From a virus (lineage: Duplodnaviria; Caudoviricetes): a stretch of DNA of 64,000 bases. Shown one piece after another: positions 3,336 through 63,501 of this stretch. The first letter of the stretch is position 1; each line of letters starts with the position of its first letter. The translations under genes and the position numbers were made by a program. A model generated the notes under the pieces. It saw only the letters and a list, made by a program, of their open reading frames with translations, had not been told where the DNA came from and searched no databases. The stretch lies in the IMG/VR virus record IMGVR_UViG_3300025723_000013. One strand, 5' to 3'.

Positions 3336-3996
3336 TAATGAGAAAAATAAAATGACGGAAAACATGCAAAAAAATCCTAAAACTGCTGACAAACCTAATG
3401 AATTGGGGTCAATCAGAGTGCAAGGACACATTAAAATCTTTGATCCAGAAACCAAAGAAATATACGTAGATAAAAGAAACGCTATCAACTACGAAAATTT
3501 CTCAATAGCTTTGGCCAACGGCGTTGCGAATTTGAATCAAAGTTTTATCTCGGAAATGGCTTTTGGTAATGGAGGATCACGTATTGATCCTACTGGAATT
3601 ATTACCTATTTAACTCCAAACACAGTTGGATCTAATGCGGCACTTTATAATCAAACTTATTTCAAGGTAATTGATGCCAGTAACCCATTTGATATAGATC
3701 CGGCAAGAAATTTTATGGAAGTAAGACATACTCCCGGAACCTATTATTCTGATGTAATTGTAAGTTGTCTTTTAGATTTTGGAGAACCAAACGGTCAGTC
3801 AGCGTTTGACACAGCAGCCAATCAAAGTAGTCCTTATGTTTTTGACGAATTAGGACTTAGGGGTTACGGACCAAATGGGCAAAATACCGGTCCTTTATTA
3901 ACGCATGTAATTTTCCATCCAGTGCAAAAAGCATTAAACAGATTGATACAAATAGATTATACTGTCAGAATACAAAGTCTGACTAGCGGAAGTTAA
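3328..3996 (+). CDS. Conserved-type phage structural protein (tail/baseplate region), function unknown
   Basis: 222-aa ORF overlapping the upstream stop by 8 nt; TAAATA at 3317-3322; in the structural operon. Confidence 0.6.
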
Positions 3997-18813: not shown

Positions 18814-19587
18814 TTACCTTTTAACTGTTTTAATTCCGTATTCTTCAAAAGTTAGTCCGACAAAATCTGTAAATTCTGGATGAATTAATACAAATATTTT
18901 ACTAATTATAGCATTTCTATTAATTACAATCAACGTATTTTTTGAAAATGTCGGATATAATTTTAACAAATCTATACTTCCTTCGCAGTATCCTTTTGGA
19001 GTTTCATATGCGTATTTTGATGCTGCTAAACTCCTAATTCTTGATCCTTTTTTAACATTTCTTTTTTTCCGAGCAGCAAGTGTTTTTTTTAATTTTGTTT
19101 CGATAGAATCTTTTCTTCCCTTTGCAATTGCTGCATAAAGCACACCGTTATATTTTTCAAATAGTTTTTTAGGTATTCTTGCAACTTCTTCTGTGATTAA
19201 ATGTTTTGCTACTACTGTATTTTTACTATATTGGCTAACTATTTTTGAGTGTTTTTCTCTGATATAGGAGTACACTCTATTAGTAATTTTATAATTTCTT
19301 CCAGAATGAATAGAATAAATCATTTTATGCAATGCCTTTATCATTTTAGGATTATTGGTAGCTTTTGCTAATAAAAGATGTGCGATAAAATGATGTCTAG
19401 CACTTAATTTAATTAAATTAGTTCCTTCTGTTCCTCCAATAGATCGAGGAACAATATGATGCATTTCGGTATATCCGGAAAAATTAATAGTTTTACAGAT
19501 TTCTATGAATTTAATATATCGTTCAATTAAAAGTATTTTAGGATTATGAGAATATTTTAACAAATATATTTTAAGGTCGTTAGACAT
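18814..19587 (-). CDS. Free-standing HNH homing endonuclease-like protein
   Basis: TEMHHIVPRSIGG..NLIKLSARHHFIAHLLL; Lys-rich NUMOD-like tail; SD GGAG at 19600-19597. Confidence 0.85.
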   Translation of the reverse strand: MSNDLKIYLLKYSHNPKILLIERYIKFIEICKTINFSGYTEMHHIVPRSIGGTEGTNLIKLSARHHFIAHLLLAKATNNPKMIKALHKMIYSIHSGRNYKITNRVYSYIREKHSKIVSQYSKNTVVAKHLITEEVARIPKKLFEKYNGVLYAAIAKGRKDSIETKLKKTLAARKKRNVKKGSRIRSLAASKYAYETPKGYCEGSIDLLKLYPTFSKNTLIVINRNAIISKIFVLIHPEFTDFVGLTFEEYGIKTVKR

Positions 19588-35610: not shown

Positions 35611-36252
35611 TCAAGTATTTATGCTACTTCTCAGTATATACTCTTCAATTTTTTTAAGATTGTCCCCTAGATACATACTTACTAGTGACAGCATGGCTCC
35701 GTCGCTGACATATAAAAAAGGATTTTGAGTCCAAAAAACACTACCTTGAAGCCATTGTTCACTGATTCTTGATACATTTAATTTGCTTTGATCATAACGA
35801 TTCAACCATTCTAAAAATAAACGTCTGGTCTCCAATTTCATATTAATTTTAATATATATTTTATACTGATAGATATTTTTAGGATATCTATCGCATACAA
35901 TTTTTTTAGTTCCATTGGCCAATAAAAAATCAAATTCTTTTTGACTATTGGGTCTATGAACCGTTAGGATATAAGTATTCAAATCTCTAATAATTTTTTC
36001 AAGTAAGGATTCATCGTTGCAAAAAATACTGCAAAAATGTCCTTCATTGCGGATTTGCACGTCTTTGTTGATAAATTTATCCAATAGAAATCTAAATTTA
36101 ATCAAATACGGAGTTTTATTGGCAGTAGACGAAGACAGTAAAAGTTTTTCGTAACCAATGCTCTGGCGTAGTTCTTGAAGCTTATAACATTCCACTTTAT
36201 AAACCCATTTTTTATAAAATAGCTTATTGGTTTTCAGATTCTTGATCGTCAT
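35611..36252 (-). CDS. Hypothetical phage protein
   Basis: 213-aa ORF overlapping the clpA 3' end. Confidence 0.65.
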   Translation of the reverse strand: MTIKNLKTNKLFYKKWVYKVECYKLQELRQSIGYEKLLLSSSTANKTPYLIKFRFLLDKFINKDVQIRNEGHFCSIFCNDESLLEKIIRDLNTYILTVHRPNSQKEFDFLLANGTKKIVCDRYPKNIYQYKIYIKINMKLETRRLFLEWLNRYDQSKLNVSRISEQWLQGSVFWTQNPFLYVSDGAMLSLVSMYLGDNLKKIEEYILRSSINT

Positions 36253-43935: not shown

Positions 43936-43943
43936 TATTTATA
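43936..43943 (-). promoter_or_regulatory. T4-type late promoter TATAAATA
   Basis: Exact T4 late consensus upstream of 43916. Confidence 0.7.
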
Positions 43944-48493: not shown

Positions 48494-49531
48494 TTATACC
48501 AAACTGTAGCTAATGACAGCCCCGCCGTATAGTCCAGAGGTACCGGTAAATGCTCCTCTCTGATTTATGGACGGGTACAATCTAATATTGCCTGCGGTTG
48601 CACCTGCGCTATTGCTCGGCCCGTACACAAACATTTCGCCCAAGACCACGGTTCCACTGTTGAGGCAAGTGACCACAGCACTTTCTGTAGCACCAAATCC
48701 TCCTACCAATGTGGCCGCGGGCCAAAGATAGCTAGGAAGACCGGTATATTCAATATAATTGTTGGTATCGGTAGTATCCCAGGTTCCGTACAAGGCTTTG
48801 AAATCGATGGTTACAATATTATTTACCACGGACCATACTATGCCCCCTGAACCAGAGATAATTCCAGTTAAGCCAGAAACCACAGTGAGTCCATTAACTC
48901 CCAAGTTGATTCCTGAAGATACCGAAGTATTGGCCACATTGACTGAGCCATAATTTAGGCCCACTGTGGAAACAAATACATTGGCTCCACCGTCGGAACT
49001 GAACAAATCCCATGCGATAGTGGCAGTGGAAGTGCTGCTGTAGGAAATTGGTGAAATGTCATTTCGTATGGTTCCGGGAGGAGAGCTTTGGCTTGCATCA
49101 AATGATATCATGGTACCTGTATTTTTGGGTGAAACCAAAATCCTCAAGGCACCGTAATTGCCTGCAGGAGGCCAATTGGAAACCGACAGCAATGTATCTT
49201 TGCTTACTGATAATTGTTGTAATGATCCTGCAGTGTAGTCAACAACGGTTACTCCGTTGTTGGTAGATGTGGATGCACTGTTGTTTGCCACCAATGCACT
49301 GTTCTGCAGTACAACTCCGTTAAGGGTGACGTTAAAGTTATAGTTGGGATTGGGATTGTTAATGGGATCTATACTGTATAACTGTAGGTTTGAAATTTCA
49401 TTGGCAGCAACACCAAATGCATTTTGTATGCTGGCAGAGTTGGTCCTAAAAGTTTTACTGTCATTGTCAGCACCTGCTACTGGAAATGCTGTATTAATTT
49501 GATTGCTGTAATTGGTTATTGTGCTGGCCAT
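48494..49531 (-). CDS. Virion tail-associated protein
   Basis: N-terminal 'NTAFPVAGADNDS..FR.N...I..A..EIS.LQ' coiled segment, beta-rich body; TATAAATA 19 nt upstream. Confidence 0.6.
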   Translation of the reverse strand: MASTITNYSNQINTAFPVAGADNDSKTFRTNSASIQNAFGVAANEISNLQLYSIDPINNPNPNYNFNVTLNGVVLQNSALVANNSASTSTNNGVTVVDYTAGSLQQLSVSKDTLLSVSNWPPAGNYGALRILVSPKNTGTMISFDASQSSPPGTIRNDISPISYSSTSTATIAWDLFSSDGGANVFVSTVGLNYGSVNVANTSVSSGINLGVNGLTVVSGLTGIISGSGGIVWSVVNNIVTIDFKALYGTWDTTDTNNYIEYTGLPSYLWPAATLVGGFGATESAVVTCLNSGTVVLGEMFVYGPSNSAGATAGNIRLYPSINQRGAFTGTSGLYGGAVISYSLV

Positions 49532-49550: not shown

Positions 49551-49558
49551 TATTTATA
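49551..49558 (-). promoter_or_regulatory. T4-type late promoter TATAAATA
   Basis: Exact consensus upstream of 49531. Confidence 0.7.
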
Positions 49559-49575
49559 ATTAATATATGCGTACA

Positions 49576-52500
49576 TTAATTTATTGTAAAGGTTGAGGTA
49601 GTTGACGGGTACACTGCTCCTGGGCTGGTCAATGTAATGGCCGCAGTGCCTGCTGATGCCAAATATGTTGATGGTATCACCGCGGTCACCTGTGTAGAAC
49701 TGTTATAGGTGGTAGATAGTGCAACGCCGTTCCAGTTTACAGTTGTGCCAGGTGGACCAGACACGAAAAATTTGCCAGTCACTGTGAGAGTGATATTGGT
49801 ACTTCCATGTGCTATATTAGTCGGTGATATGCCAAGCAGTTGCGGCGTTGGTACAGTAGCGGTTGTGTGATTGGTTAACCAGTTGTACACTGCAACGCCT
49901 GCTCCCTGTCCAGGAATATAGTTGCCCGATGCATCATACTGAGTTAGGCCAAAATTTACATTGTAGGCTGGGTTTTGTGGACTTGTCCAATTCCATGCAA
50001 CATATGAAGCATTGTTTTGATCCGCCCATTTGGTCATAAAATCTATATGAGGTTCGCCCTGCGTGGCTTGTGGACCAATAAGTCCTCCATCCTCAGTCAT
50101 GATCACAGGAATGTTGGCTGCTTGTAGTTGTTTGTACCAATAATCAAAATTACTAGTTCCTTGATACGCATCGCCGCCGGTTTTCCCATATATCCAAGAA
50201 GGATCGGCTGTATATGGATAACTCTGAGTTGGAAACCCACCACCGGGATAAGCATGCCATCCATGTGCCAATTGCGGATTAGATGCCACCTGTAAATTGC
50301 CTCCAACTAATATCTTATCGGTTGGGAACCATCCTTTGTAATTTTGAGCTTGTTGGGTAAATGTTGGTCCGTTTATAACACACACATTTTGAGCGCCCGT
50401 GGTTCGAATAGCATCAATAACTTGTTGATATCCTAAAACATTTATTGGAGCTTGAGAAACAACAGTTGCGGCAGTGTCAATGTCATATCCCCATTGGGTA
50501 TTCGCTGGCCAGCTGCCACCGTTAAGCATTAGATTTCTAACAAAAGGTTGATTACTAGAATTGCTATCCAAATATGGTTCATTGAATATTTCAAATATGA
50601 TTCCGTCGTTTTGAATTCCCGGAGCCACAGGAGGAGCCTGTGTGCCAAACGTGTTTGCTATGGATTTCCAAAAATCAAGATCCGTGTCAGCGTTCATGAA
50701 AGCCGATTGACCTATCGGGGTCGCCAACCGTCTCGATGGAGTTCCGGTCACTGGATCAGTCAATGTCAAATATGGAGCGCTCCAATGAATCTCTAGGATC
50801 ACTCGGCATCCCAAGGCCTGTGCTGCTTGAACAGCAGCAATAGTTGCTGCACGAGTAGATCCGTAAAGATCTGCGTTCCTAGAAGGTGCATTTGCCCATT
50901 GTGTAAAGAAGCCTTGACTGTTCCTAACTGTGGTATCAACATCCCAACATGTTATGCCCAACCAGGAACCTGCGTTCATAGGAATTCTCACTATGCTGCA
51001 TTTCCATTTGGCCAATACTGCGTATCGAGGAACAATGCCCTCCCATATGATTTCATTATTATTTCGAACTGCGTACTGTAATCCGCCCAAATTTACTCCG
51101 CGTAACTGTAGATAGTTATTGTTTGCGTCAACAAATATGCCACCGCTGCTGGCCACTTTTACAGTCAATGATGCTGTTGTTACTGGCTGAGCAACAAAAG
51201 TTTGTATAGGATAAATTTGAGGAATTTGTCCAATGCCATAAGCCCCAACTTGAATATCGACCGAGATAGGCGCGGCATTGGGTACCGAAAGCAAGTGGGC
51301 AGGTATTATTGCTTGTATTTGAGTAGGACTAATTTGCGTGCTAGATAAACTATGGGATTGATCTAGGGTATCGCCCGACCCATTCCAGGTTACACCTCTA
51401 TATGATGGAAATACTGTACCAGGTATGGATTGCAGTGTAACAGTGATGTCCGGAGATCCTACCGCTGCGCTGAGGCGTGACAGATAGTAACTGGAATAAA
51501 CGTTGCCGCTAACTGTAAATGTCAAGGGCAAAGACACTGTAGTGGCGCCCGGGGTAGATACAGTAACAGGAAAACTGCCAGGATTTATCAAATTGGTAGC
51601 AGTTACCGTCGCAGTTAGCCCAGTTGAACTTCCAAAGAATGTGGGCAATGCCACTCCATTCCAATTAATTACCGAATTTGAAGTGAAATTAGTTCCTGTT
51701 ACAGTCAGCGTTATAGAGCTTAAAGTGCTAGCAGTCTGAGTAGGCGACATGCTGAGCAATCTTGGGGTGGGCGCTGTGGGGTTGACGTGATTTTTCGTCC
51801 AATTGTAGACAGCTACTCCTGCTCCTTGGATAGGAACAACAGACGGAGGTGATGTGTTAGCAGCAGTTGCGTACTGTGTTAGATAATATTGGCAACTGGC
51901 AATATTGTAATTTTGATTTGCGGTATATTGCGAGGCAATATAAGATACATTATTTTGATCTGACCAGTTTTCCATAAATGTAATATGAGGTTCACCTTGT
52001 GAAGCACTGGTTCCACCTAAGCCTCCGTCCTCGGTAATAAGTACGGGAATTCCTGCATTTAAAATCTGTTGATACCAATGATCCCATCCCTGGCTGGTAT
52101 CATCTGTTCCTGTCTTTCCGTATATGCTACCTGTTATTGTATAAGGGTAGGCCGATTGTGGATTTCCTACTGGATACGCATGCCATCCATGGGCTAGTTG
52201 AGAACCGGAAGTGCCTGTTGATAATGAATCAGTAGGGAACCAGCTTGTGTAATTTTGTGCTGATTGTGTGCGGTAAGCTCCATTAATTATGCATACATTG
52301 TTGGCTCCATTGGCTCGAATGGCATTCACTACCTGTGTGTATCCTAAAATACCAATTGAAGTTGATGAGATTATTGAAATTCCATTATCGACGTCTACAC
52401 CAAATGGTAGATTCGGTGGGAATGATCCACCTTGCAACATCAATGAATATGCTGTGGCTGTGCTAACAGAACCATTGATATCAAGATATGGTTCATTGAA

Positions 52501-55500
52501 AATTTCAAATAGCACTGCTGCATTTGTAATACCAGGATACGGAGAAGGATTGTTTGTTCCAAAAGTTTGCGCCATGGATATCCAAAAGGATAGATCTGTA
52601 TTGGTATTCATAAATTCGGATTTACCAGTAGGAGTGAGTAAATGAGTCACTCCTCCTAATGTAATACTAGGAGCACTGCAATGCAAATCAAGTATTACAT
52701 AGCATCCTACAGCCTGCGCCGCTGCGATGGCTGTGTATACTGTTTGTTTATAATTTCCCCAGTAATCGCAGTTAAATGAATTAGCCCATGCTCCGTTGTT
52801 TTGATTGTAAGTTGTTAATCCCAACCACGCTGCGGCGTTGAGAGAGATTCTTGCAACGTTGGGTTTCCAGGTTTGGAATACGGACCAATCTGGTATTTGC
52901 CCGCCCCATTGTGATACGTAATTTGCAGTTGCAGTTGTTAACGCAGATACAGGCGCAAATGCCAAACTGGAAAAGTTAGCGCCGCGTAGCTGTACAAAAT
53001 TTCCATTTTGATCAACTAGAGTATTACCGGAAACCTTTGTACTTATTCCGTTTATGTATAAAGGCACTGCTGAACTTATGCCACCCCCCAATCCGGGACT
53101 CAGCACAGTAATGTTCAACACAGTGGCCGAGGACAAACTACTGGTAGGCAGTGCGAAAGTTAACTTATTTGTACTTGCGAAGTTAGTAGTTACTGGAACT
53201 CCGTTAATGCGGACTACAGAATTGGAAACAAAATTAGAGCCATTCACTGTCACTGTAGCAGTTGTACTACCTTGCAGCGCATTTGAAGGAGATAGATTAT
53301 TAATAACCGGAGATGCAACACTGGTCATTTGGAAAGGACCCAGTATGGCCGAATCTCCTTGTCTGCTCCACGGTGGTAATCTATAGTGTAGATATACAGC
53401 GCGGCCATCTTCAAACCTTCCACCGTTAACCTGTATGGTTATACTGGTACTGGTCCAGTTAATCCACGGCTGTATCTCGCGTATGGTGCTGTTTGACCAT
53501 GATGTGTTATCTGTTAAGTAGATGTCACCGTCGCCGACGTCTACAAAGCAATTGGCAAAATAGCGCCATGAGTTGCTGTTGAGAGGAGTACGATTGTATC
53601 CCCCCAACATCACCGCAGTGGACTGCGTATTGAGATTGGTTGCAGAAGTAATCACAGGCAAATAATTTGTCAACGAGTCGCCGTCGTAGGCCACTATGGT
53701 TCCACCGGCTCCTGTAAATTTAATATAAACTGTTTTCTGAGACCAACCAGATAATGTAGTACTCTGAGAAGGTATTGGAGTACCATAAGCACTGCCAGGC
53801 AGTGTTAAACTTGGATTGGGATAACTCTCGTCATTCACTGTCCATGATGTTGTGGTACTGTATTGTCCGTTAAATGGCGTTGCATATGCAAAATAAAAAC
53901 CAGTTCCCCCTTGGTTATTATAAAAGGAATTATTATAAACACCAAAATATTTGTAATTGTTATCGCTGGTTAAAATACCAACAGTGCCTGCGCTGCTGGA
54001 CGAAGCAGTAGAACTCACGGTAACTGTGCCTGCAGCCTGATTTATGTTGGTTATATAGGTATTTTGTGGGAAATACCCGTTGGAATTAGATATATAAAGT
54101 CCCGGATTAGCAAAAATAAATTGACTACAATTAGTGATAGTACTGCTATTATAGGTGATTTGTCCGCCAAATGTGGCTTGATAGAGCACAGCATTTGTTC
54201 CGTTGTTCAGTGCTTTGTTACTCAAAGTAAGTGTAGCAGTTGATCCGGATATGGCTATATTGGTAATGGTGGTACCTGATGGGAATAGGTTGCTTACAAT
54301 GTAAGATCCTGTGGTGTATCCGGAAGGAAGTGCACTGCTTGATACAAAGTTTACTGTGCTGGTGTTAGCAAAAACCAGTCCAACATACGACCCATTACTG
54401 ATGCCGCTGGATGAAGACCAATATGGATCTGCTCTTTCCCACCAAGTGGCCATCAAGGTGTGTGGAACTCCTAGATAGGGATATTTCACTGACAATAATT
54501 GATCATAGCCTCTATTGCCAGATCCAATACCCAATCCACCTATAATATTTTGGACTCTGTTATTTGGCCCATAAATTGTTGTTGGCGTGTCCACTGTCCC
54601 TGCAGGATAGTTGATTGATGGACGCACAAATGGCACGGCTCTGTAAGCCATGGCAGCTGATGTATTTGCTGCAATAACAGGATCTGATAGGTCTGGAAGA
54701 GCAGCATCTGTCCAAGTAGCAGTCAACACGCTGTTGATAGACCCATTATCCCATGCCACTGGCGACGATAACAGTTTGTTGGTAAACGTCATTCCTGTGG
54801 CTGTGCTGGTTATAACAAAAGTCTGATTGTGTGCCAATAGCGTCATAGACGCAGTCGACAATATGTTTACAGGAGTTGAATAAATTACACGTTCATTTTG
54901 ATCGTACACATACAGTGTTCGATTGGTTCCGGTACTTAGTTGCCCTTGATTGAACACGTATGAAATAGCAGTTCCGGACCAAGATACCAGGCACTGCGGC
55001 TCTGAATAGGTGCCGTCGCTGATTTCAACCCTAGCAGCGGTAAAGTCATAATAGATGTCGGCAAAGTTTGCGGTATAGGGATTGGTAAAGTAAACTTGGT
55101 TTTGACCATTCACGTTGAATAATTTTCCAAGGTAAGCCGAACTGTCCATTTCGCTGCCTAGGGTCATGCCTGCATTATTTTGATTTCCACTGGCGTCAGT
55201 ATAAGGAGCGTTCCACACGGGATTGATATCAAGCAGTCCGGCTGGATCTATAGCAGGAAGCACACTAAGGGGAGGTTTAATTGTGCTGTTGCCAAAATAC
55301 AGTGTTCCTGCTCCGGTAGCAGCATTGCCATTCACTCGGCTGAGCACAGTGCCAGTACTGCCCACTCGCCACTTTACTGCGTGTTCCCAACGATTCCACT
55401 GTGTAACATCGGGCACTTGATTAGAGGTTGATGTGCTCAGTGACCCGCTCACATTGCTGGCATTGTTATAACCCGGCCAATTTAAATTGGTCGCGCCAGT

Positions 55501-58500
55501 TAATCCTCCCGGCATGATAAAGCCAGCAGCGTTGTTGTAGGGCTTTTGTGTAAAATTAGTAGAATCAGTCAGTATTGTTTCAGTATCGTTGTTACTACCG
55601 AAATGATATGATCTACGAGTTCGTTTCTGGTCCGAGATCACATTGTTTACGCCGCCTTGACTTTGAAACTTGTATGACAAGTATTCTCCGGTGTAGCTTG
55701 CAGTGGTAATACCATTCACTGATACCACCAAACCTCCGCAATATCTATCGGTATACATGGTAGGATTGCCCATACCTCTCTGGAAATAATATCCCGATTG
55801 TGACACGCCTCCTGCCACTAGCCCAAAGCCTGTGAATGGAAAGCCATTCCAGATAGTGGCTGTGAATGGAGGACAAGTAATGTGTTTGGTTGAATTTGAA
55901 TAGAACGCAGTCATGCCGCCCAGTACTCGATTCCAGTCGGCGTCGGTATATGTGGTAGGCAAGCCCTGATCCATTTGTGCCCACACTAGATGCATGTGGT
56001 TATAGCCCTTCCAGCTATAGTTGCCAAAGTTGTAATTGGCTCTTGTGCCAAAATTGATACCACTAGGTGCCGACACTGATGCCAATTGACCATGCACCAA
56101 ATTGCTTGGCGGATTATTCTGCACCAGTGCTGAAAAGATCGCTCCAAGGGTAAGATAACTTGGATTTTGAGCCCCGCCTTCGATGGGATTAAATGTGGCC
56201 GTAAATGTGCCAACGGTTCCTACGGATTTGTATTCTGCAGTGGCTGCATTTTGATTGGGCTTATAGTAAAAATTCCACATGGCACCGTTTATCAAAGGCG
56301 CAGTGACAGAAGCGGTACCTTGGAAAAAAGTAGTTGAACTTGATAGTGTTAATCCGGTAAATCCTGTGCCTGGAGTCGGTGTGGTTGGAACCGTGGCATC
56401 GACTTCGTCAAATGTTACCGCTACAAATAATCCGTTGTTAGAAAGATTACTGGTTAATGTATTATTAGACACTGTGACGCTGATGGCATTGGTATTGGTA
56501 CCAGATGGCACGTTTCTTTGTAAATTTATAGCAGATGCAACTACAGGATTAGCAGCTACTCCTGTTATTTCAAACACACTAAAAGCAACCCAGTCTTCAA
56601 AAGCTCCCGATGTCGGGGCCATATTGACAGTATAGGTTCCGCTGGACACATTACTTGCTGCCCAATGTCCGACTGATTGAGTTCCTTGTATGCCTAAGTT
56701 AAGTCCGACAAGATCATCATATCTACCAAGAAAATTATAATTATTAACTCCGTCAGTAGCAGTCATAGTTGGATACAAACTATAATAATTTGGCCAAGTT
56801 CCTACCACATACAAAGTGCTGCCTGCCTGCACATTGTTTAGTGTCACGTTCCAGTTTGAACTGATAGCCCCTCCTTGCGGGTAATATCCATTGTACTGTG
56901 ACATCTGTCTTATTGTGGGATTATTATTGGCAACAACAACAAATGCGAAGAGAGACGTACCACCGCCGGGAGCAGGATTTACTACATCAAGTGAAATAGT
57001 GTTAGGCTGTGCCACAAATGAACTGGGAAGTACACAATTCAATGTTGAACTGCTGACATAGGTGGTTGCAGTCAGCAGTGTTGCATTGGCATAAATCTGA
57101 GATCCGGGGATGAATCCGCTGCCGAATAATGTCAAGTTAATAGAATTGCTACTGGTTGTGATGATACTGGGCGAAACTTGTGAAATACTTGGAAAAGGAT
57201 TTCCGCTGGGAATTGTGGATGTGGTAACATTAAAGACAGATGCGGCCGATACTCCCCCGCCGGGTGCAGGATTTGTCACGGTAATGGCCAGCGCGGCCAC
57301 ATTGGTCAATAGCAACGACGCCAATGTGGCTGTGAATAGACTGTTACCAACATAGGTGCTGGGAATATTGGATCCATTGACTTGCACAGTGGAACTAGAC
57401 ACATATCCATTACCGGTCAATGTTATAATGGTTGTAGAAGTACCTGCAACCACAGTGGATGGGTTGATACTGCTGATAGACGGAACTGGATTTACTGCAA
57501 CAACAGTAAAGATTGTTCCGTTGGATGTACCTCCGCCAGGTGATGGATTGACCACCGTGACGGTTGCGGTCGCTGCGTTGCTCAGTTGACCTGCAGGGAT
57601 CGTGGCCTGGATTTGTGTAGAAGTGTTAACATTAATTGCTAACGAACTGCTGTTATAATAAACTAAAGAACCGGCAACAAAACCTGTTCCTGATATGGTC
57701 AGTGTGGCGCCGGAAGCTCCGGCTATGGCTGTCAATGGAACTATAGAGCTTACCGAAGGAGTTGGATTTACTCCGCTAGATCCATTGATTGACAACGGTT
57801 CGTTGTAGAAATAGTAAGCACCCGCCGGTCCTAGGTTGCTGTAGATGACCGGCACGGTGCCCGAAGCGCCACCCGTGGCTCCCTGAACCACTTGATAGGC
57901 CTGGGTCACAGTGGATCCAGACCATGAACCATTTACCCAGTTATTGCCAAGGAATGTGGCATATGTTGGGACATTGCTATTCAAGGTTCCTGTTTGTGAA
58001 GGGGTTCCGGTAGTGGTTGAAACATAAGTTAAATCAGTACTGCCCACGTGCAGTATCGTGGCCGTTCCTTGGAACACTCCATTAAACCCAGTTCCTCCAG
58101 TGATGCCAGAAATATTAACGGTGGCCAGATATCCCGGCAAAAAACTTCCCTTGGTATATCCCACGGTCACTGTATTACCTGACACCTTGACACTGGTGAT
58201 TGGATTTATGATAGTGCCAACATACGCATCATTGCGGAAAGCTGCGTAGTTTAGAGGGGTTCCTTGTATTTCAATGTTGTTATTCTGTAGTGTGGCACCG
58301 CCTGTGCCCACGTCATATCCATAAACATCGCCAATCCAAAAATGCACTCTATTAGTGATCAATCTATTCCCGGTAAAACTCAGCCCTGTGCCGTTATTTG
58401 ATAAACCCAACACATAGCACAATGCCGTGGCATCTACGCCAGTAGCTGCAAACAAATTGCTGTTGTATGTGTTGTTGGTCACTGTGTTGGTAGCACCTTG

Positions 58501-60729
58501 ATAATACAATCCACGTGCTGTGCTATTTTGATAGGAGTTGCTCACAGGATTGAACACAGTGCCTTGCATGGCGTGTGTCCAAATAGTGTTGGTAGAAATG
58601 GTATTGTTTTGCGGATTGCCAAATTTCATGGTGAATCCGTCGGCATAGTTTTCATAATCGTCTAATTGACCGGTAGGCGACGGGAATTGATTTCCAATTC
58701 TAGTATACATGCCTTCAAACCAATTGTGATACACAGTGGTTGGCTGCCCTGCAGGACTGCTAACATTCATAAAACAAGACTGCGGATGGCAGCCGGTAAA
58801 GTACATGTTGTTGTTATAAATTTTTTGACTGTATGGTACCACCAATCGTCCACTAGTGGTACTGATCCAGGTAGCACTGGATGAGCCAATGAGCGGCATT
58901 ATTGATCCATTGGTCCACCAGGTGTCATGCCAAAATTCATTTTCGTATACGTTGGCCGAGATACCATTAATGGCAACATCTCTACCGGATATAAATCTAT
59001 TCCATCTAATTATTGGCCAACCTTCTTGTCCCACTATATTGGCCTGGAATTGACGATCTTGCACGGTCCACCCGTGATCTTCAAATGTGCAATATTCGAT
59101 CATGCTGGTGTAGGGATATGGAGTACCTTTGGTATTTTGATTATCGGTCAACAACACGCATTGTGCATCACAAATTGCTCCGCAGGAATAGGTATTCCAA
59201 TAGAAATACAGTCCTCGCAGTTGCAAGAACATGTAATAAGCATAGAATTTGATCGGAGAAGGACCAGTTCCATATAGTCCCTGTCGCATATTGGTCGAGC
59301 GACCTGCTCCGTTGCGAATTGTTCCATTGATAATTTCAATAAAGCCGTTGTACTGATATGATCCATATCCGCCAATGCCATATGCTTCTGCCGAATTGTC
59401 GCCGGTGGCAAATGTGTTGCTGGTTCCATACGTGACAGTGTGACCGTTGAGATCAATAACGATGTTACTGACACTGAGCGGAATGTTGATGCACCATGTT
59501 GGGCTGGTCAAATCGCAAGTTAGGGTATAATAGCAATTGCTGGCAGTACACACATATTGTTGACCATTGGTGTATCCGCCGTCCACGGCGTTGGAATTGG
59601 TATTTTGTATGGTGATTGAACGGGCTAGCCCGGTATTGAGAGCCGTTACTGTTTGCTTCCCTGCTGGTAATCTTAGTGGGCCCACTGCAGATAGATCATT
59701 TGGCGCGGCCAATCCTACCGATGTACCGGTAATCCATGCAGGAATGGCGGGGAAAAACCATGGTCTCAAACTGGTTTTATAGTATGTGGAACTGGTGAGT
59801 CCGGTGCCTACTCCGGACGGTGATACTCCCAATGCAAATCGACTCTGTATGGTTTGACCTTGTGAATCTCTAACTTGCACATACAATAAATTTCCTTCAG
59901 TGACTCCCGGAGTACCACTGACCATGCCGGTCGAACTGTTAATGGTCCACACATTTTGCGGAATAGCAGGCACAGTGGTGCCAGTGGTCCAAAAATTAAT
60001 AGGAACACCTGTATAATTACTGCTGGCAGTGGTAGTAGCCAATGGAGGCTGGTAAAACGAGTAATTGTACGGCGGGTATCCACCTTGAACCTGCACAGCG
60101 GCAGAAAATGCTGTGTTTTGCACAGGACTATTTCCATTTGCATCGGATAGCACATAGCAGTCAACTATGGTGGCCAGTGCATTGGATGAGAATGTGATTG
60201 GGGAGTTGGTATATCCTGAATTTGGAAATGGCTGTGATATTTGAACAGTGGAACTGTCGAGGATGGCTGTAACGTAAACTCCATTTATTGTGTATACCAA
60301 TACATTATTGAGATTGGGATCGGTTGAAGTAAGGAATTGACCCACTACTATTCCGGTAGTGGTTGTTAAATTGGTTATGGTTATACTGTTTTTGGTAAAT
60401 GTGCCCGAAGTAACAGTTTTAAATGAAGGTATTCCGCCTGTTTGGTTGGTATATTGGATGGTTCCTGATGCGCTTGATCCGCCGGTTATAATGAAAGTGC
60501 CATTGTAACCGATTAGGCCATTTCCTAGCATGCCAGTAACTACAACAGTGTTGCCGATTTTGGGATTTATTGGATTGAAAGGTTTAACGGTAATAGTCAC
60601 GGTGGTTCCGCTAACAGTTGCGGATGTTATGGAGTTTGTAGAACCGTTTTGTAGGTCATAGACCTGTTGGAATACCAACGGTCCTGGAACCGTTGTAGGA
60701 GACCCCATCATCATGTTGAGTAAACTCAT
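49576..60729 (-). CDS. Giant (3717 aa) multidomain receptor-binding/depolymerase protein: putative Ig, parallel beta-helix, about 7 IPT/TIG, two GH5 domains
   Basis: GH5 signatures twice (LRG.N, R..N, ILD.H, FEIFNEPY, HGWHAYP, (I/M)TEDGG); IPT repeats ending V.NP.PGGG.S; beta-helix-like Asn-ladder region at about 58250-59570. Confidence 0.85.
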   Translation of the reverse strand: MSLLNMMMGSPTTVPGPLVFQQVYDLQNGSTNSITSATVSGTTVTITVKPFNPINPKIGNTVVVTGMLGNGLIGYNGTFIITGGSSASGTIQYTNQTGGIPSFKTVTSGTFTKNSITITNLTTTTGIVVGQFLTSTDPNLNNVLVYTINGVYVTAILDSSTVQISQPFPNSGYTNSPITFSSNALATIVDCYVLSDANGNSPVQNTAFSAAVQVQGGYPPYNYSFYQPPLATTTASSNYTGVPINFWTTGTTVPAIPQNVWTINSSTGMVSGTPGVTEGNLLYVQVRDSQGQTIQSRFALGVSPSGVGTGLTSSTYYKTSLRPWFFPAIPAWITGTSVGLAAPNDLSAVGPLRLPAGKQTVTALNTGLARSITIQNTNSNAVDGGYTNGQQYVCTASNCYYTLTCDLTSPTWCINIPLSVSNIVIDLNGHTVTYGTSNTFATGDNSAEAYGIGGYGSYQYNGFIEIINGTIRNGAGRSTNMRQGLYGTGPSPIKFYAYYMFLQLRGLYFYWNTYSCGAICDAQCVLLTDNQNTKGTPYPYTSMIEYCTFEDHGWTVQDRQFQANIVGQEGWPIIRWNRFISGRDVAINGISANVYENEFWHDTWWTNGSIMPLIGSSSATWISTTSGRLVVPYSQKIYNNNMYFTGCHPQSCFMNVSSPAGQPTTVYHNWFEGMYTRIGNQFPSPTGQLDDYENYADGFTMKFGNPQNNTISTNTIWTHAMQGTVFNPVSNSYQNSTARGLYYQGATNTVTNNTYNSNLFAATGVDATALCYVLGLSNNGTGLSFTGNRLITNRVHFWIGDVYGYDVGTGGATLQNNNIEIQGTPLNYAAFRNDAYVGTIINPITSVKVSGNTVTVGYTKGSFLPGYLATVNISGITGGTGFNGVFQGTATILHVGSTDLTYVSTTTGTPSQTGTLNSNVPTYATFLGNNWVNGSWSGSTVTQAYQVVQGATGGASGTVPVIYSNLGPAGAYYFYNEPLSINGSSGVNPTPSVSSIVPLTAIAGASGATLTISGTGFVAGSLVYYNSSSLAINVNTSTQIQATIPAGQLSNAATATVTVVNPSPGGGTSNGTIFTVVAVNPVPSISSINPSTVVAGTSTTIITLTGNGYVSSSTVQVNGSNIPSTYVGNSLFTATLASLLLTNVAALAITVTNPAPGGGVSAASVFNVTTSTIPSGNPFPSISQVSPSIITTSSNSINLTLFGSGFIPGSQIYANATLLTATTYVSSSTLNCVLPSSFVAQPNTISLDVVNPAPGGGTSLFAFVVVANNNPTIRQMSQYNGYYPQGGAISSNWNVTLNNVQAGSTLYVVGTWPNYYSLYPTMTATDGVNNYNFLGRYDDLVGLNLGIQGTQSVGHWAASNVSSGTYTVNMAPTSGAFEDWVAFSVFEITGVAANPVVASAINLQRNVPSGTNTNAISVTVSNNTLTSNLSNNGLFVAVTFDEVDATVPTTPTPGTGFTGLTLSSSTTFFQGTASVTAPLINGAMWNFYYKPNQNAATAEYKSVGTVGTFTATFNPIEGGAQNPSYLTLGAIFSALVQNNPPSNLVHGQLASVSAPSGINFGTRANYNFGNYSWKGYNHMHLVWAQMDQGLPTTYTDADWNRVLGGMTAFYSNSTKHITCPPFTATIWNGFPFTGFGLVAGGVSQSGYYFQRGMGNPTMYTDRYCGGLVVSVNGITTASYTGEYLSYKFQSQGGVNNVISDQKRTRRSYHFGSNNDTETILTDSTNFTQKPYNNAAGFIMPGGLTGATNLNWPGYNNASNVSGSLSTSTSNQVPDVTQWNRWEHAVKWRVGSTGTVLSRVNGNAATGAGTLYFGNSTIKPPLSVLPAIDPAGLLDINPVWNAPYTDASGNQNNAGMTLGSEMDSSAYLGKLFNVNGQNQVYFTNPYTANFADIYYDFTAARVEISDGTYSEPQCLVSWSGTAISYVFNQGQLSTGTNRTLYVYDQNERVIYSTPVNILSTASMTLLAHNQTFVITSTATGMTFTNKLLSSPVAWDNGSINSVLTATWTDAALPDLSDPVIAANTSAAMAYRAVPFVRPSINYPAGTVDTPTTIYGPNNRVQNIIGGLGIGSGNRGYDQLLSVKYPYLGVPHTLMATWWERADPYWSSSSGISNGSYVGLVFANTSTVNFVSSSALPSGYTTGSYIVSNLFPSGTTITNIAISGSTATLTLSNKALNNGTNAVLYQATFGGQITYNSSTITNCSQFIFANPGLYISNSNGYFPQNTYITNINQAAGTVTVSSTASSSSAGTVGILTSDNNYKYFGVYNNSFYNNQGGTGFYFAYATPFNGQYSTTTSWTVNDESYPNPSLTLPGSAYGTPIPSQSTTLSGWSQKTVYIKFTGAGGTIVAYDGDSLTNYLPVITSATNLNTQSTAVMLGGYNRTPLNSNSWRYFANCFVDVGDGDIYLTDNTSWSNSTIREIQPWINWTSTSITIQVNGGRFEDGRAVYLHYRLPPWSRQGDSAILGPFQMTSVASPVINNLSPSNALQGSTTATVTVNGSNFVSNSVVRINGVPVTTNFASTNKLTFALPTSSLSSATVLNITVLSPGLGGGISSAVPLYINGISTKVSGNTLVDQNGNFVQLRGANFSSLAFAPVSALTTATANYVSQWGGQIPDWSVFQTWKPNVARISLNAAAWLGLTTYNQNNGAWANSFNCDYWGNYKQTVYTAIAAAQAVGCYVILDLHCSAPSITLGGVTHLLTPTGKSEFMNTNTDLSFWISMAQTFGTNNPSPYPGITNAAVLFEIFNEPYLDINGSVSTATAYSLMLQGGSFPPNLPFGVDVDNGISIISSTSIGILGYTQVVNAIRANGANNVCIINGAYRTQSAQNYTSWFPTDSLSTGTSGSQLAHGWHAYPVGNPQSAYPYTITGSIYGKTGTDDTSQGWDHWYQQILNAGIPVLITEDGGLGGTSASQGEPHITFMENWSDQNNVSYIASQYTANQNYNIASCQYYLTQYATAANTSPPSVVPIQGAGVAVYNWTKNHVNPTAPTPRLLSMSPTQTASTLSSITLTVTGTNFTSNSVINWNGVALPTFFGSSTGLTATVTATNLINPGSFPVTVSTPGATTVSLPLTFTVSGNVYSSYYLSRLSAAVGSPDITVTLQSIPGTVFPSYRGVTWNGSGDTLDQSHSLSSTQISPTQIQAIIPAHLLSVPNAAPISVDIQVGAYGIGQIPQIYPIQTFVAQPVTTASLTVKVASSGGIFVDANNNYLQLRGVNLGGLQYAVRNNNEIIWEGIVPRYAVLAKWKCSIVRIPMNAGSWLGITCWDVDTTVRNSQGFFTQWANAPSRNADLYGSTRAATIAAVQAAQALGCRVILEIHWSAPYLTLTDPVTGTPSRRLATPIGQSAFMNADTDLDFWKSIANTFGTQAPPVAPGIQNDGIIFEIFNEPYLDSNSSNQPFVRNLMLNGGSWPANTQWGYDIDTAATVVSQAPINVLGYQQVIDAIRTTGAQNVCVINGPTFTQQAQNYKGWFPTDKILVGGNLQVASNPQLAHGWHAYPGGGFPTQSYPYTADPSWIYGKTGGDAYQGTSNFDYWYKQLQAANIPVIMTEDGGLIGPQATQGEPHIDFMTKWADQNNASYVAWNWTSPQNPAYNVNFGLTQYDASGNYIPGQGAGVAVYNWLTNHTTATVPTPQLLGISPTNIAHGSTNITLTVTGKFFVSGPPGTTVNWNGVALSTTYNSSTQVTAVIPSTYLASAGTAAITLTSPGAVYPSTTSTFTIN

Positions 60730-60731
60730 TC

Positions 60732-61772
60732 TTAACTCAACCCTGCTCCGGACGCTATTCCTTCGGAGCCAGAATTAAACCAAATGGTACACAATCCATA
60801 TGCAGCCAGCGTCCGTGTACCAGTGCTGGCAGTACCCGCTAGGCGTAAAGTATTAATGCCCGAAGCAATAGCAATTGATGCAGTGGACACATTGTATATA
60901 CTGACAACATTTCCTTGACTAAACACTGCATTTGGAACAGTAATTGTGCCAGAGGCAACAACGCATTTGCCATTGTCGGTCAACGACAGTGTTGTACTTG
61001 TAGAAGCAGGTACCGAGTTTGATGCAGCGCTACCGATATAACCAAGAGATCCGGAATAACCAGTGGGAGGACCTTGAGATCCAGCATAACCTATGCCTGT
61101 AGATCCTATATATCCATAACTACCTACAAATCCAGTAGTACCTGTAGAACCCACTGAGCCAATGTATCCTGCACTGCCTACAAACCCAGATGCAGTGCTA
61201 GCTGATCCTGTATAGCCGACTGATCCTGTGTAGCCGATACTGCCTGTATAACCTGTTGCTGTGCTAGCTGATCCAGTATAACCAGTTGATCCGGTATAAC
61301 CGCGTGATCCTGTGTAGCCTGTAGCGGTACTAGCTGATCCAGTATAGCCGCCTGCAGGACCAAGAGATCCGGTATATCCAGTACTGCCGCTTCCAGTATA
61401 GCCAGTTGACCCAGCATATCCTATAGAACCAAGATATCCTGATGCTGTACTGGCTGATCCTGTGTATCCTATTGATCCCGCATAGCCAATTGAACCGGCA
61501 AATCCTAAGGATCCTGTGTATCCCGAGGCAGTGCTGGCAGATCCTGTATATCCTGCACTTCCTGCATATCCAACCGATCCAATATACCCCGAGGCAGTGC
61601 TGGCCGATCCTGTATAACCATTTCCATTAAATGTGGATCCTCTTGCTAATATATCGGCTACGGTGGCACGTTTGGTAACAGGAACATTGCCTGTTAAATC
61701 TACAACGGGCATAATGACATTTTGTAGATTAGTGCTTGTAGATAATCCAGGTAAATTTTCAATAGTTGGCAT
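60732..61772 (-). CDS. Collagen-like (Gly-X-Y) tail fibre protein
   Basis: N-terminal attachment-type motif, about 200 aa of GYTGSx repeats, C-terminal domain ending RTLAAYG..SGAGLS. Confidence 0.8.
   Translation of the reverse strand: MPTIENLPGLSTSTNLQNVIMPVVDLTGNVPVTKRATVADILARGSTFNGNGYTGSASTASGYIGSVGYAGSAGYTGSASTASGYTGSLGFAGSIGYAGSIGYTGSASTASGYLGSIGYAGSTGYTGSGSTGYTGSLGPAGGYTGSASTATGYTGSRGYTGSTGYTGSASTATGYTGSIGYTGSVGYTGSASTASGFVGSAGYIGSVGSTGTTGFVGSYGYIGSTGIGYAGSQGPPTGYSGSLGYIGSAASNSVPASTSTTLSLTDNGKCVVASGTITVPNAVFSQGNVVSIYNVSTASIAIASGINTLRLAGTASTGTRTLAAYGLCTIWFNSGSEGIASGAGLS
61029..61619 (-). repeat. Coding tandem repeat GY(T/A/I)GS(x), punctuated by ASTA(S/T)
   Basis: Visible at protein level and as GGATC/TATAC-rich repeats in the DNA. 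Confidence 0.9.
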
Positions 61773-61788
61773 TCAAATTCTCCATAAT

Positions 61789-63501
61789 TTAACTGAAAAG
61801 AGGAGTTCCGTCTTCGGTTAATAGATCTCCCGAAACTCCCAACACCGAACTGGTGAGAATTAGCGATGGACCATTTTCAATATTTATATTAGAACTGGTA
61901 GTTGAGGCAAATATTAGATAATTGGTTCCTGTGGTGGTAAGATTGTCATTGACAATCAATCTATCAATTTGGAAATTTATATTGGTAAAATCAAAATTGC
62001 TAGAATTAATATTGTTTAGAATCATAGATCCACTACCAGGCAAAGTGTAGCATAATGGAACCGCTAGTGTGTATCCAGGAGGAACCCCTCGGGAATCTTG
62101 TATAGTTCTCATCCATCTTGGCAATTGATAAAAATCAGTGTTGGCAAGATTATTTCCAATTTGATCAGATTCAAATGCTTTACGCATGTTAGCGATACTG
62201 TTAGGGTAGGTGACAATATTGCCTATGTCCACTGCCGAAAGAAAATATCCGGATGCATTTTCTAAAGGATCTATGATTTGAGCATATATCACATCATAAA
62301 CATGATTTCCGTAGTCATCATTTCCTTGACCAATCATGATATCGCCAAAAAATAATTGTTTTTTATAAAAACATTGGCTCATAACATAGGCGTATTGCAG
62401 CAACGTATCCTGTTGTATTCCATATTCTAGATATAATTTTATATTTTGTTGTATCCCAAAGTTTGGATCCGAAATTCGATATATTAATGCAGGATTAAAA
62501 ATTGAGAAATCATTTATAAATGAAGAATAATTATATCTTGTATTAAGACCCAAAAACGGCTGTGCATATATCTGGGTGTATAAACTGGTATCATACGCTG
62601 TTACTTCTATATAAAAATCTTTAGAAATAGACTGTTGATATTGATCAGTGGCAGTGACCACAAAATTGTATTGCCCTAGTGCTGATCCGTATAAAACTCT
62701 GCCTATAATTGATCCATCTAAACCCATTGTAAGACCAGGAGGAAGAGATCCTCCGGTTATATTGTATCTTATTGAAAGATTTCCACTGGAATGTGATGCC
62801 TGAACTGCTATCTCGCTTAGATAGCCTAAATTCAAATTGCCTAAATTTTGTGGAGATGTAAATGCTATTGTGTTATCAATAGATCCTTTAATGGTAAGAC
62901 TAAAATCTTGATTAATATATGAACTTATCGCATGTAAAACATCTTGTTTATCTATTCTGATGGTGAAATTATATGTGTTACTGTATATAGGCAAATATGG
63001 CAGATTACTGTAAAATACTCCTGACTGATTATCTAAATTAAAATACGGAGGCAGCTGATTTTGTCTCCAATAAGACGCTGTAAATGTTGCTGTGGATTGA
63101 TGAGCTGTTGTGCATATGTAGCTTATGCCGCTGCCTTGGATCCTACTCCAAGTTGATCCGTTATACACAACAAGATCACCCAATTGAAAATTGACCGGGC
63201 CGGCTCCTAGATTTTGTTTACCCGGAACATTTACAATATACATGGTATTGGTATTGAGAAATTGTCCATTGCTTAATTTTGGAATATTAGATAGAGCGTT
63301 CCATCCGCCATTGAAATTGAAATTTTGCGGGGAATAAACCACCCAGTCGCCGAGATTATAGCTAGTGAAAGGAGACCATAAATTTTCGCCAGCACAAGAG
63401 TAATTTGTAGGTCCAATAGCAGGATAAGGATCATAGCTTTTTAACTGAAAAATATGTTTATTGGCAGCTCTAATGGATCCTAAATTTATTGTAGATGACA
63501 T
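61789..63501 (-). CDS. Baseplate wedge-like protein with putative Ig domain
   Basis: GGSLPPGLTMGLDGSIIG Ig-type motif; C-terminal 'LPRWM..IQ..GY..AVPLCY..PG' and 'F.IDRLIV' region; SD GGAG. Confidence 0.65.
   Translation of the reverse strand: MSSTINLGSIRAANKHIFQLKSYDPYPAIGPTNYSCAGENLWSPFTSYNLGDWVVYSPQNFNFNGGWNALSNIPKLSNGQFLNTNTMYIVNVPGKQNLGAGPVNFQLGDLVVYNGSTWSRIQGSGISYICTTAHQSTATFTASYWRQNQLPPYFNLDNQSGVFYSNLPYLPIYSNTYNFTIRIDKQDVLHAISSYINQDFSLTIKGSIDNTIAFTSPQNLGNLNLGYLSEIAVQASHSSGNLSIRYNITGGSLPPGLTMGLDGSIIGRVLYGSALGQYNFVVTATDQYQQSISKDFYIEVTAYDTSLYTQIYAQPFLGLNTRYNYSSFINDFSIFNPALIYRISDPNFGIQQNIKLYLEYGIQQDTLLQYAYVMSQCFYKKQLFFGDIMIGQGNDDYGNHVYDVIYAQIIDPLENASGYFLSAVDIGNIVTYPNSIANMRKAFESDQIGNNLANTDFYQLPRWMRTIQDSRGVPPGYTLAVPLCYTLPGSGSMILNNINSSNFDFTNINFQIDRLIVNDNLTTTGTNYLIFASTTSSNINIENGPSLILTSSVLGVSGDLLTEDGTPLFS

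Follow-up and report, generated by a model that had tools for sequence, protein, structure and literature searches.

A 3,717-residue phage protein joining a tailspike-like unit, TIG repeats, jelly-roll modules and two predicted GH5 glycanases on one polypeptide

A single giant gene was found in a 64,000-nucleotide stretch of viral DNA (Duplodnaviria; Caudoviricetes; IMG/VR record IMGVR_UViG_3300025723_000013); this whole stretch is referred to here as the window. The gene encodes P0001, a protein of 3,717 residues, and its frame is fully open from its ATG start, as the original prediction, made from the letters of the window, had given it. From the N-terminus to the C-terminus, the modules of P0001 follow each other in the order tailspike-like unit, TIG repeats 1-3, modules A, B and C, TIG repeat 4, GH5#1, TIG repeats 5 and 6, GH5#2 and TIG repeat 7, and we read the protein as probably a very long virion fibre. 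The positions of the gene, its modules and the surrounding features are listed in Table 1. A protein identical to P0001, apart from a start five residues later, was found in ENA on a 244,218-bp metagenome contig. Judged from its sequence, the host genome of P0001 is that of an uncultured soil-type jumbo phage of about 244 kb, and the genes around it are those of a large phage of the T4 type.

Table 1. Features of the giant gene and its surroundings, in window coordinates
Feature	Position	Strand	Evidence or remark
Giant gene P0001, 3,717 aa	49576..60729	-	single open frame, ATG start, no stops
Tailspike-like unit, aa 1-980 (anchor region, He_PIG-like Ig part, beta-helix, C-terminal part ending ...NEP)	57790..60729	-	homology to stand-alone phage proteins
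Putative Ig (He_PIG-like) part, aa ~191-335	59725..60159	-	best-conserved N-terminal block in alignment of relatives; ESM features
Right-handed parallel beta-helix, aa ~356-935	57925..59664	-	Foldseek, VIA, ESM features
TIG repeats 1-3, aa 986-1260	56950..57774	-	Pfam TIG and TIG_SUH; own HMM, E ~1e-33 per copy
Module A, aa 1267-1534, uncharacterised, usually C-terminal elsewhere	56128..56931	-	43-56% identity to C-terminal ~235 residues of many metagenome proteins
Module B, aa 1541-1956, ConA/LamG-like jelly roll	54862..56109	-	54-59% identity to stand-alone 442-aa P0135
Module C, aa 1972-2464, apparent paralogue of B, ConA-like jelly roll	53338..54816	-	45-47% identity to P0136 (808 aa), same sample
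TIG repeat 4, aa 2468-2554	53068..53328	-	Pfam; own HMM
GH5#1, aa 2555-2983	51781..53067	-	Pfam PF00150; acid/base E2746, nucleophile E2900
TIG repeat 5, aa 2984-3066	51532..51780	-	own HMM
TIG repeat 6, diverged, aa 3086-3157	51259..51474	-	own HMM, E 2.7e-6; within span of 57%-identical TIG-GH5 match on contig L111
GH5#2, aa 3180-3623	49861..51192	-	Pfam PF00150, best stretch 3237-3583; acid/base E3384, nucleophile E3546
TIG repeat 7, C-terminal, aa 3624-3706	49612..49860	-	Pfam; own HMM
Collagen-like fibre protein, 346 aa, upstream, 2 nt from giant gene	60732..61772	-	PHROG tail-fibre and collagen-like minor-tail families; NCBIfam collagen-like adhesin below its cut-off
He_PIG protein, 570 aa, minor-tail-like, upstream	61789..63501	-	PHROG minor tail; Pfam He_PIG
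Ser/Thr/Asn/Gly-rich fibre-like protein, 345 aa, downstream after 44 nt	48494..49531	-	composition and GC like those of giant gene
TATAAATA, T4 late-promoter-like	49551..49558	-	before downstream 345-aa fibre-like gene
TATAAATA	61881..61888	-	109 nt before collagen-like gene abutting giant gene; consensus match only
TATAAATA	43936..43943	-	third copy in window

A total of seven TIG repeats, with a repeat unit of about 85 residues, were found in P0001. The Pfam families TIG (PF01833; 44.8 bits against a cut-off of 20.9) and PF20144 (36.7 bits) both match, and the copies were counted with a hidden Markov model (HMM) that was built from the clear copies and run over the protein. Six copies are strong, with E values of about 1e-30 to 1e-34 (aa 986-1074, 1078-1167 and 1175-1260, followed by repeats 4, 5 and 7), and repeat 6 is diverged, in agreement with the about seven IPT/TIG domains that had been predicted. 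Comparison of 200-residue windows with the whole protein also revealed a duplicated GH5-TIG module, with about 50% identity between aa 2554-3073 and aa 3180-3717. The beads-on-a-string, multi-module make-up proposed in the original prediction was borne out, and the virion appendage that it saw in P0001 is plausible, as homologues of aa 1-980 occur in phages and the gene lies in a cluster of fibre-like genes. Its likening of the protein to a cellulosome holds only as an analogy, in that several glycan-active modules are carried on one scaffold; no cohesin or dockerin Pfam family was found in any segment of P0001. The protein has no match among the PHROGs, none of its modules has a match in NCBIfam, and aa 1-985 and aa 1260-2470 gave no Pfam match even at E <= 1. 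Among full-length relatives (2,044-6,505 aa), just P0001 itself and proteins with TIG repeats in common were returned, and the same fused architecture was found in none of the searched collections (full-length protein search, 50,697 GenBank phage records, IMG/VR contigs).

Searches with the first 985 residues recovered the relatives P0265 (998 aa, 45% identity), P0266 (1,059 aa, 42% over 98% of the query) and P0267 (863 aa, 34%), together with a 1,329-residue open reading frame (ORF) on an IMG/VR contig that is 44% identical to aa 149-981. All four relatives stop at the position of aa ~978-981, five to ten residues short of the first TIG repeat. Two of the three relatives with known context are set in a structural module: on a 47-kb phage contig (L084), P0266 has the portal/Mu-F genes to one side and the capsid genes to the other, and P0265 lies a few genes past the portal of a 56-kb contig (L085). 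The loci of the relatives with 42-45% identity are L084:10001-13180, L085:10001-12997 and, for the 1,329-residue ORF, L113:8393-12382. The GC content of the L084 and L085 contigs is 65-67% as against about 38% in the jumbo phage, and therefore the tailspike unit has moved between very different phages, which perhaps share a host surface glycan. No match to aa 1-985 was found by tblastn in the 50,697 GenBank phage records.

The fold of this unit was observed in a structural model of low predicted local distance difference test (pLDDT) score. All 50 best Foldseek matches of the N-terminal model in the PDB are right-handed beta-helix proteins. VIA comparison of model residues ~356-935 gave Z scores of 18-21 and root-mean-square deviations of 3.2-3.9 Å over 300-330 residues, the partners being the tailspikes of Sf6, CBA120, HK620 and Det7, the K5A lyase, RbmB, PL6 lyases and AlgE epimerases. 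Features of the ESM language model likewise indicate a beta-helix for aa 330-985 and place aa 1-335 with viral He_PIG clusters (0.92, 185 shared features). The beta-helix had been predicted at coordinates that agree with our map, and these structural matches support it, with the reservation that the fold is seen only in the low-confidence model: the N-terminal unit has no match to Pfam Beta_helix, and phmmer with aa 330-990 found no match in the PDB. An N-terminal Ig domain had been predicted as well; the ESM features speak for it, whereas Pfam gave no match there at E <= 1. From sequence and model together, the N-terminal third of P0001 is a predicted phage tailspike unit.

Two GH5 domains occupy the C-terminal part of the protein. 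PF00150 matches in two stretches (E 6.7e-36, 124.6 bits against a cut-off of 23.5), and each copy also matches alone. The two barrels that had been predicted (corresponding to aa ~2563-2980 and ~3186-3620) agree with the domain limits found here, and their three motifs were recovered in both copies, namely FNEPY (aa 2744 and 3382), HGWHAYP (aa 2847 and 3489) and TEDGG (aa 2899 and 3545). In an alignment of 30 sequences, consisting of both copies and 28 relatives, the Arg, the His, the N-E(-P), the H-x-Y and the second Glu are invariant. GH5#2 has all eight signature residues (R3248, H3315, N3383, E3384, H3492, Y3494, E3546 and W3581), and GH5#1 retains R2627, H2683, N2745, E2746, H2850, Y2852 and E2900. 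Both copies were described as intact in the original prediction; this stands in full for GH5#2, whereas GH5#1 keeps its catalytic Glu residues but is not fully canonical, its AWxW motif reading ASQY. Outside the catalytic pair, GH5#2 has six of the six remaining signature residues (Arg, His, Asn, His, Tyr, Trp) and GH5#1 five, with Tyr (Y2935) for the canonical Trp, a position that is Phe in two other family members. Another Trp, present in 29 of the 30 sequences, is replaced by Ser in GH5#1.

The profile of the GH5 alignment matches 89 solved GH5 chains, the best being 6gjf (E 2.8e-19). In this alignment, NEP falls on NEP, TE(D)G on TEWG, which holds E228, and the second, canonical Trp of the motif on W262. 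The Glu pair of both copies is taken as the canonical acid/base and nucleophile because of this correspondence to the acid/base Glu and E228 of the solved enzyme, which is one of sequence profiles and not a three-dimensional superposition. On sequence grounds, the two copies are predicted retaining beta-glycanases. The best-matching structures carry different activities (endoglucanase, retaining beta-glycosidase and xyloglucan-specific endoglucanase) and no close relative is characterised or solved, so that cellulose as the substrate is only a guess and the digestion of several polysaccharides, as foreseen in the original prediction, no more than a possibility. Searches with GH5#1 gave no match in the PDB by phmmer and none in the GenBank phage records by tblastn.

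Between TIG repeats 3 and 4 lies a region of about 1,200 residues (aa 1267-2464) that was absent from the original prediction and that a HMMER search splits into the modules A, B and C. No Pfam family was found for any of the three or for their homologues. The relatives of module A include the GH5+A protein P0031 and a TIG+A protein in a bacterial neighbourhood. P0135, the stand-alone protein of the module B type, is encoded on a 3.9-kb contig of 45% GC where it adjoins a second B-type gene. A scan of viral contigs with module C found no match. Modules B and C appear to be paralogous in sequence. In the alignment used for the central region (A4), the row ends of the two types are swapped between these paralogous modules, as MAFFT matched the C-terminal ends of B-type sequences with the far end of C and, conversely, the N-termini of C-type sequences with the beginning of B.

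The model of aa 1535-2470 has a mean pLDDT of 60.7, with C better modelled than B. Module B (model residues 43-398) resembles the SasG/Aap lectin, the lectin domain of the V. cholerae sialidase and the phi24B esterase domain at Z scores of 11-12. Module C (model residues 452-868) is closest to TtX122A (Z 13.3) and the PL20 glucuronan lyase (Z 12.6), with further matches to Cip1, legume and ERGIC lectins and the PL7, PL14 and PL36 alginate lyases. Thus, the CAZy modules of the ConA-like jelly-roll type (X122 TtX122A/B, Cip1, PL20, PL7/PL14/PL36 and the lectins) have the same fold as B and C at Z scores of 11-13, but the sequence identity is just about 10% and the model of B and C is a moderate one. 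Polysaccharide-lyase-type folds match at Z scores of 10.5-12.6 and lectins score just as well, while the top AlphaFold-DB cluster for the B/C model is named 'Polysaccharide lyase' (E 3.1e-12). As far as the models go, the jelly-roll fold of B and C would fit binding as well as cleavage. For X122 domains (TtX122), neither activity nor binding was detected (PMC10916295).

These observations bear on whether P0001 cuts glycans at all. It might be a virion fibre that only binds, in which the GH5 domains, above all GH5#1, and the jelly rolls act as lectins with little or no cleavage. The loss of Trp to Ser and the Tyr for the canonical Trp in GH5#1 are in keeping with such a fibre, as are the equal closeness of B and C to lectin domains and to lyases and the lack of activity of TtX122, the best structural match of module C (PMC10916295). 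Against it, both catalytic Glu residues and the R/H/N/H/Y set are kept in the two GH5 copies despite their identity of only about 50%, which argues for selection on catalysis, and GH5#2 has the full signature. We regard a binding-only fibre as unlikely and retain the reading of P0001 as a fibre that would carry active enzymes.

The origin of the modules was examined through their composition and through their relatives. Along P0001, GC varies between 0.42 and 0.48 and GC at third codon positions (GC3) between 0.31 and 0.46 (mean 0.39), compared with a GC3 of 0.31 +/- 0.06 in the other genes of the window. The raised total GC of the giant gene comes mostly from codon position 2 and so reflects its amino-acid make-up. 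The phage as a whole has about 38% GC, in contrast to 65-70% in the bacterial GH5 relatives that were checked. Recent horizontal transfer from a high-GC bacterium was considered and rejected, given the GC3 of P0001 beside that of the other phage genes and the high GC of these relatives. As the composition of P0001 is phage-like, its modules seem not to be a recent bacterial import.

GH5 relatives at about 50% identity are metagenome proteins of 400-700 aa, many of them with TIG domains, and two close ones that were checked lie in bacterial neighbourhoods of 65-70% GC. Among the species-representative genomes of GTDB, the best GH5 matches reach about 33% identity and belong to uncultured Steroidobacteraceae, Nevskia, other Gammaproteobacteria and Acidobacteriota, many from bog, palsa and forest-soil bins. 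In a quick maximum-likelihood IQ-TREE tree of 56 rows, with none left out and a midpoint root for drawing only, the GH5 clade of P0001 sits beside a large group that takes in the bacterial members checked. Within the clade, GH5#1 groups with GH5#2 and P0022 (Shimodaira-Hasegawa-like approximate likelihood ratio test, SH-aLRT, 95), with GH5#2 and P0022 joined to each other, and P0003 is sister to these (SH-aLRT 98).

P0022 is a 569-aa TIG-GH5 gene that is 57% identical to aa 3079-3622 and lies on a contig of 41% GC from the same sample, where it is directly followed by an 808-aa module-C-like gene (45% identity). This locus, L111:315-4461 (k141_9881, ERZ27271978; 4.5 kb, GC 0.41), represents a portion of the giant gene in unfused form and probably comes from a related phage. 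P0003, a GH5 gene of 418 aa, was found on a phage-like contig, and the run of genes to which it belongs also includes a collagen-like gene and a LamG-rich one of 1,635 aa. Module B is seen as tandem stand-alone genes, and the same GH5 clade occurs on other viral contigs in ORFs of 444-1,712 aa. On one of these (IMGVR_UViG_3300047494_000058, L087:1144-8155), the gene for a 957-aa fn3-GH5 protein of this clade comes after those for a pectate-lyase-type protein of 1,054 aa and a head-decoration-like protein, and the genes of the head protease and the major capsid protein begin just downstream of it.

Since the modules exist elsewhere as separate adjacent genes, the giant gene looks like a fused fibre cluster. 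We read the GH5 tree as pointing to a duplication of the two copies inside a lineage of phage-context genes, before the split between this phage and the owner of the L111 contig. From their sequences, the modules apparently came out of a pool of phage fibre genes and were joined by fusion, rather than being freshly taken from a bacterium, and for the order of events we infer fusion rather than fission. The original prediction had them probably assembled from bacterial surface-protein modules. This holds to the extent that the GH5 clade lies beside a bacterial group and that module A occurs in a bacterial protein. It does not hold for the nearest GH5, B and C relatives, which are separate genes on phage-like or low-GC contigs, nor for the N-terminal third with its predicted phage tailspike unit, and the GC3 of P0001, close to that of the phage, gives no sign of fresh bacterial uptake.

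The same data bear on whether the fusion is real. P0001 lies on a contig from a short-read metagenome assembly, and the sample also contains related modules in genes of their own, so a chimeric assembly, or a sequencing error that deleted stops between fibre genes, has to be weighed. However, the frame is open over 11,154 nt with every junction bridged by TIG repeats, the composition is uniform and near that of the phage itself rather than the 0.65-0.70 GC of the bacterial relatives, and phage genes lie on both flanks. No compositional break that would suggest a chimeric join was seen in a GC and GC3 scan along P0001. A mis-join with the relative from the same sample is unlikely because the protein identity is just 57%. 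We consider an artefact highly improbable and treat P0001 as one genuine, probably fused gene.

The genes around P0001 were found to be largely of the fibre type. The collagen-like fibre gene that was predicted to lie directly before the giant gene does so, and beyond the window end, further upstream, there follow a 351-aa He_PIG protein and a 453-aa fibre with a Peptidase_S74 chaperone domain. These two genes lie at L001:4796-7212, where they are preceded by SufBD-like, ABC ATPase, UvdE and sugar-epimerase genes. The 345-aa protein on the downstream side has no PHROG or NCBIfam family match; to our eye, it is similar to the S74 fibre at the N-terminus. BLAST found no similarity between P0001 and its fibre-like neighbours, nor between the 345-aa protein and the S74 fibre. 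Past the 345-aa gene lie polymerase-related and clamp-loader genes. The T4 late-promoter-like word TATAAATA has three copies in the window, all on the minus strand and 19-109 nt before gene starts, two of them in the fibre cluster. It is only a weak hint of late expression, since its total count is not above chance and in fact below expectation.

Other genes of the window include a family-B DNA polymerase (PHROG E 6e-193), the clamp loader, a Lon-type protease and baseplate-hub-like and other virion proteins. The polymerase shares 50% identity with that of the Sinorhizobium phage Phosso and 44% with its counterparts in jumbo myophages, for example GAP32 and CBB, and blastn with the flanking DNA found nothing beyond short similarities to PhoH and the polymerase. 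The Lon-type ATP-dependent protease has 758 aa (36224-38500, minus strand; PHROG E 7e-247), and a 415-aa HNH endonuclease is encoded at 12300-13547 on the same strand. A 257-aa ORF at 18814-19587 (minus strand) may be a recent insertion, with a GC of 0.27 and a GC3 of 0.15 compared with about 0.38 in its neighbours.

This setting can be read in more than one way. P0001 could be a soluble enzyme complex outside the virion, acting in auxiliary metabolism or at lysis, which the infected cell would produce and set free on lysis for the breakdown of environmental or matrix polysaccharides, thereby feeding the host or freeing the progeny from biofilm. In soil viruses, GH5 genes are mostly interpreted as auxiliary genes for carbon degradation, and for one of them the product was demonstrated to be an active endomannanase (PMC6786970; 10.1101/2024.12.20.629349). 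Moreover, the wider GH5 clade has bacterial members, two of them in bacterial contexts, and genome matches in soil Gammaproteobacteria and Acidobacteriota, and the giant gene abuts replication genes. Such a complex is unlikely in our estimate, however: the GH5 domains are in frame behind a full tailspike-type unit with relatives in phage structural modules, the giant gene lies inside a run of fibre genes, and phage fibre-like clusters are also where the nearest GH5 relatives are located.

A virion appendage other than a tail fibre, such as a head fibre, a whisker or a 'hairy' decoration for reversible attachment to matrix polymers, would accord with the distance of the fibre cluster from the baseplate genes of the window. 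It would also suit the L084 and L087 contigs, where relatives or GH5 genes stand among head genes (head-decoration-like, protease, capsid). On the other hand, the beta-helix unit is most like tailspikes and the neighbours are an S74-chaperone fibre and minor-tail-like proteins; a position on the particle cannot be read from gene order alone. We judge a non-tail appendage quite improbable.

Our favoured reading, which we hold with somewhat better than even confidence, is that P0001 is a very long virion fibre of a jumbo myophage, with a tailspike unit as its anchor, TIG spacers, glycan modules and two distal GH5 domains. The first ~980 residues (attachment region, Ig-like domain and beta-helix) would anchor the protein to the particle, and the beta-helix unit probably binds or cuts a surface polysaccharide. 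A string of 2,740 residues would have been fused onto the C-terminus of the tailspike unit, at the point where its relatives end. Along this string, the TIG repeats would act as spacers between modules, module A and the two jelly rolls as carbohydrate-binding and possibly lyase units, and the GH5 domains as two retaining beta-glycanases at the distal end, with the acid/base Glu in NEP and the nucleophile Glu in TEDGG. Such a fibre may reach into the thick extracellular polysaccharide of a soil bacterium and hold on through its lectin-like modules while GH5 cuts beta-linked glycans, whereby the particle would gain access to the cell surface. The virion presence, enzyme activity, GH5 substrate and oligomeric state of P0001 are what we infer here.

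Several observations weigh against this reading. The phage is uncultured, and the giant gene adjoins replication genes, whereas the baseplate-like genes of the window are some 45 kb away. For aa 1-1000, the AlphaFold model is weak, with a mean pLDDT of 41, and no Pfam, PHROG or NCBIfam family was found for the first 985 residues. The GH5 clade is without a close characterised relative (best PDB profile match at E 2.8e-19), and GH5#1 may, from its sequence, be weakened or binding-only given its Trp-to-Ser loss and the Tyr for the canonical Trp. Jelly rolls of the B/C type include proteins without detectable activity or binding, for example TtX122 (PMC10916295). Finally, the architecture is unique among the searched collections, and conservation therefore cannot vouch for the fused form.

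A stronger version of the fibre reading is also conceivable, in which P0001 is a whole receptor-binding cluster fused into one chain with four or five glycan-cleaving activities, namely the beta-helix, the two GH5 domains and the two jelly rolls as unrecognised lyases. We think this rather unlikely. If true, the protein would be a covalent, virus-borne counterpart of the cellulosome for tunnelling through mixed soil-biofilm matrices, and much of the 'cellulase' signal in soil viromes would be infection machinery and not auxiliary metabolism.

Phage depolymerases normally carry one enzyme per tailspike, and phages facing complex capsules carry many separate spikes. The tailspikes of P22, Sf6, HK620 and CBA120 (TSP1-4) have the same fold as the N-terminal unit of P0001 (VIA Z 18-21) and a presumed role in binding and cutting surface polysaccharide is common to them. 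Jumbo phages of the RaK2/phiKp24 type have many depolymerases as separate proteins (PMC9700779). Their arrays resemble P0001 in that they too are a fibre cluster of a jumbo myophage, but they consist of separate proteins with one enzymatic domain each, whereas the modules of P0001 are on one polypeptide, C-terminal to the beta-helix.

A precedent comes from Erwinia phage S6, which requires bacterial cellulose for infection and whose GH5 protein gp095 degrades carboxymethylcellulose (Knecht et al. 2022, as discussed in PMC9544554). The gp095 protein of this N4-like phage is, like P0001, a multi-domain protein with a C-terminal GH5 and both catalytic Glu residues that belongs to a host-recognition region. 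It differs in having one GH5 and no beta-helix, compared with two GH5 domains in the 3,717 residues of P0001 behind a tailspike unit. The GH5 of P0001 gave no tblastn match (E <= 1e-3) in the 50,697 GenBank phage records, a set in which the inclusion of S6 is unconfirmed.

The viral GH5 endomannanase from Stordalen Mire (PMC6786970) is, like that of P0001, a GH5 of an uncultured virus, and the bacterial relatives of the GH5 of P0001 come largely from soil and peat bins. That enzyme is read as a free carbon-degrader, whereas the GH5 domains of P0001 are covalently part of a virion-type scaffold. Secreted bacterial GH5-TIG proteins (~670-700 aa; Steroidobacteraceae, Nevskia, Acidobacteriota) belong to the same GH5 clade, at about 50% identity for metagenome and about 33% for GTDB sequences. 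They are chromosomal single enzymes at 65-70% GC, in contrast to the phage copies, which form a clade of their own with other phage-context genes.

GH5 enzymes in phage host-recognition regions were already known, as gp095 of S6 illustrates. What sets P0001 apart is its size, the covalent linkage in one chain of a full tailspike unit, two GH5 domains and three modules not yet characterised, the evidence for a fused cluster, and the lack of a second protein of this architecture in the searched collections. P0001 appears to be a clear example of a receptor-binding apparatus growing by gene fusion, because related contigs carry the same modules as separate neighbouring genes. When soil viral contigs carry GH5 or other 'cellulase' genes, these are as a rule assigned to the auxiliary genes of carbon cycling (PMC6786970; 10.1101/2024.12.20.629349). 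The in-frame link to a virion scaffold and the same-clade relatives in fibre clusters argue that at least this GH5 clade serves infection, and P0001 thereby suggests that soil viruses can use such 'carbon-cycling' enzymes as components of their infection machinery. With many environmental members and none characterised, the families of modules A, B and C and of this GH5 clade are candidates for new carbohydrate-binding or carbohydrate-cleaving activities.

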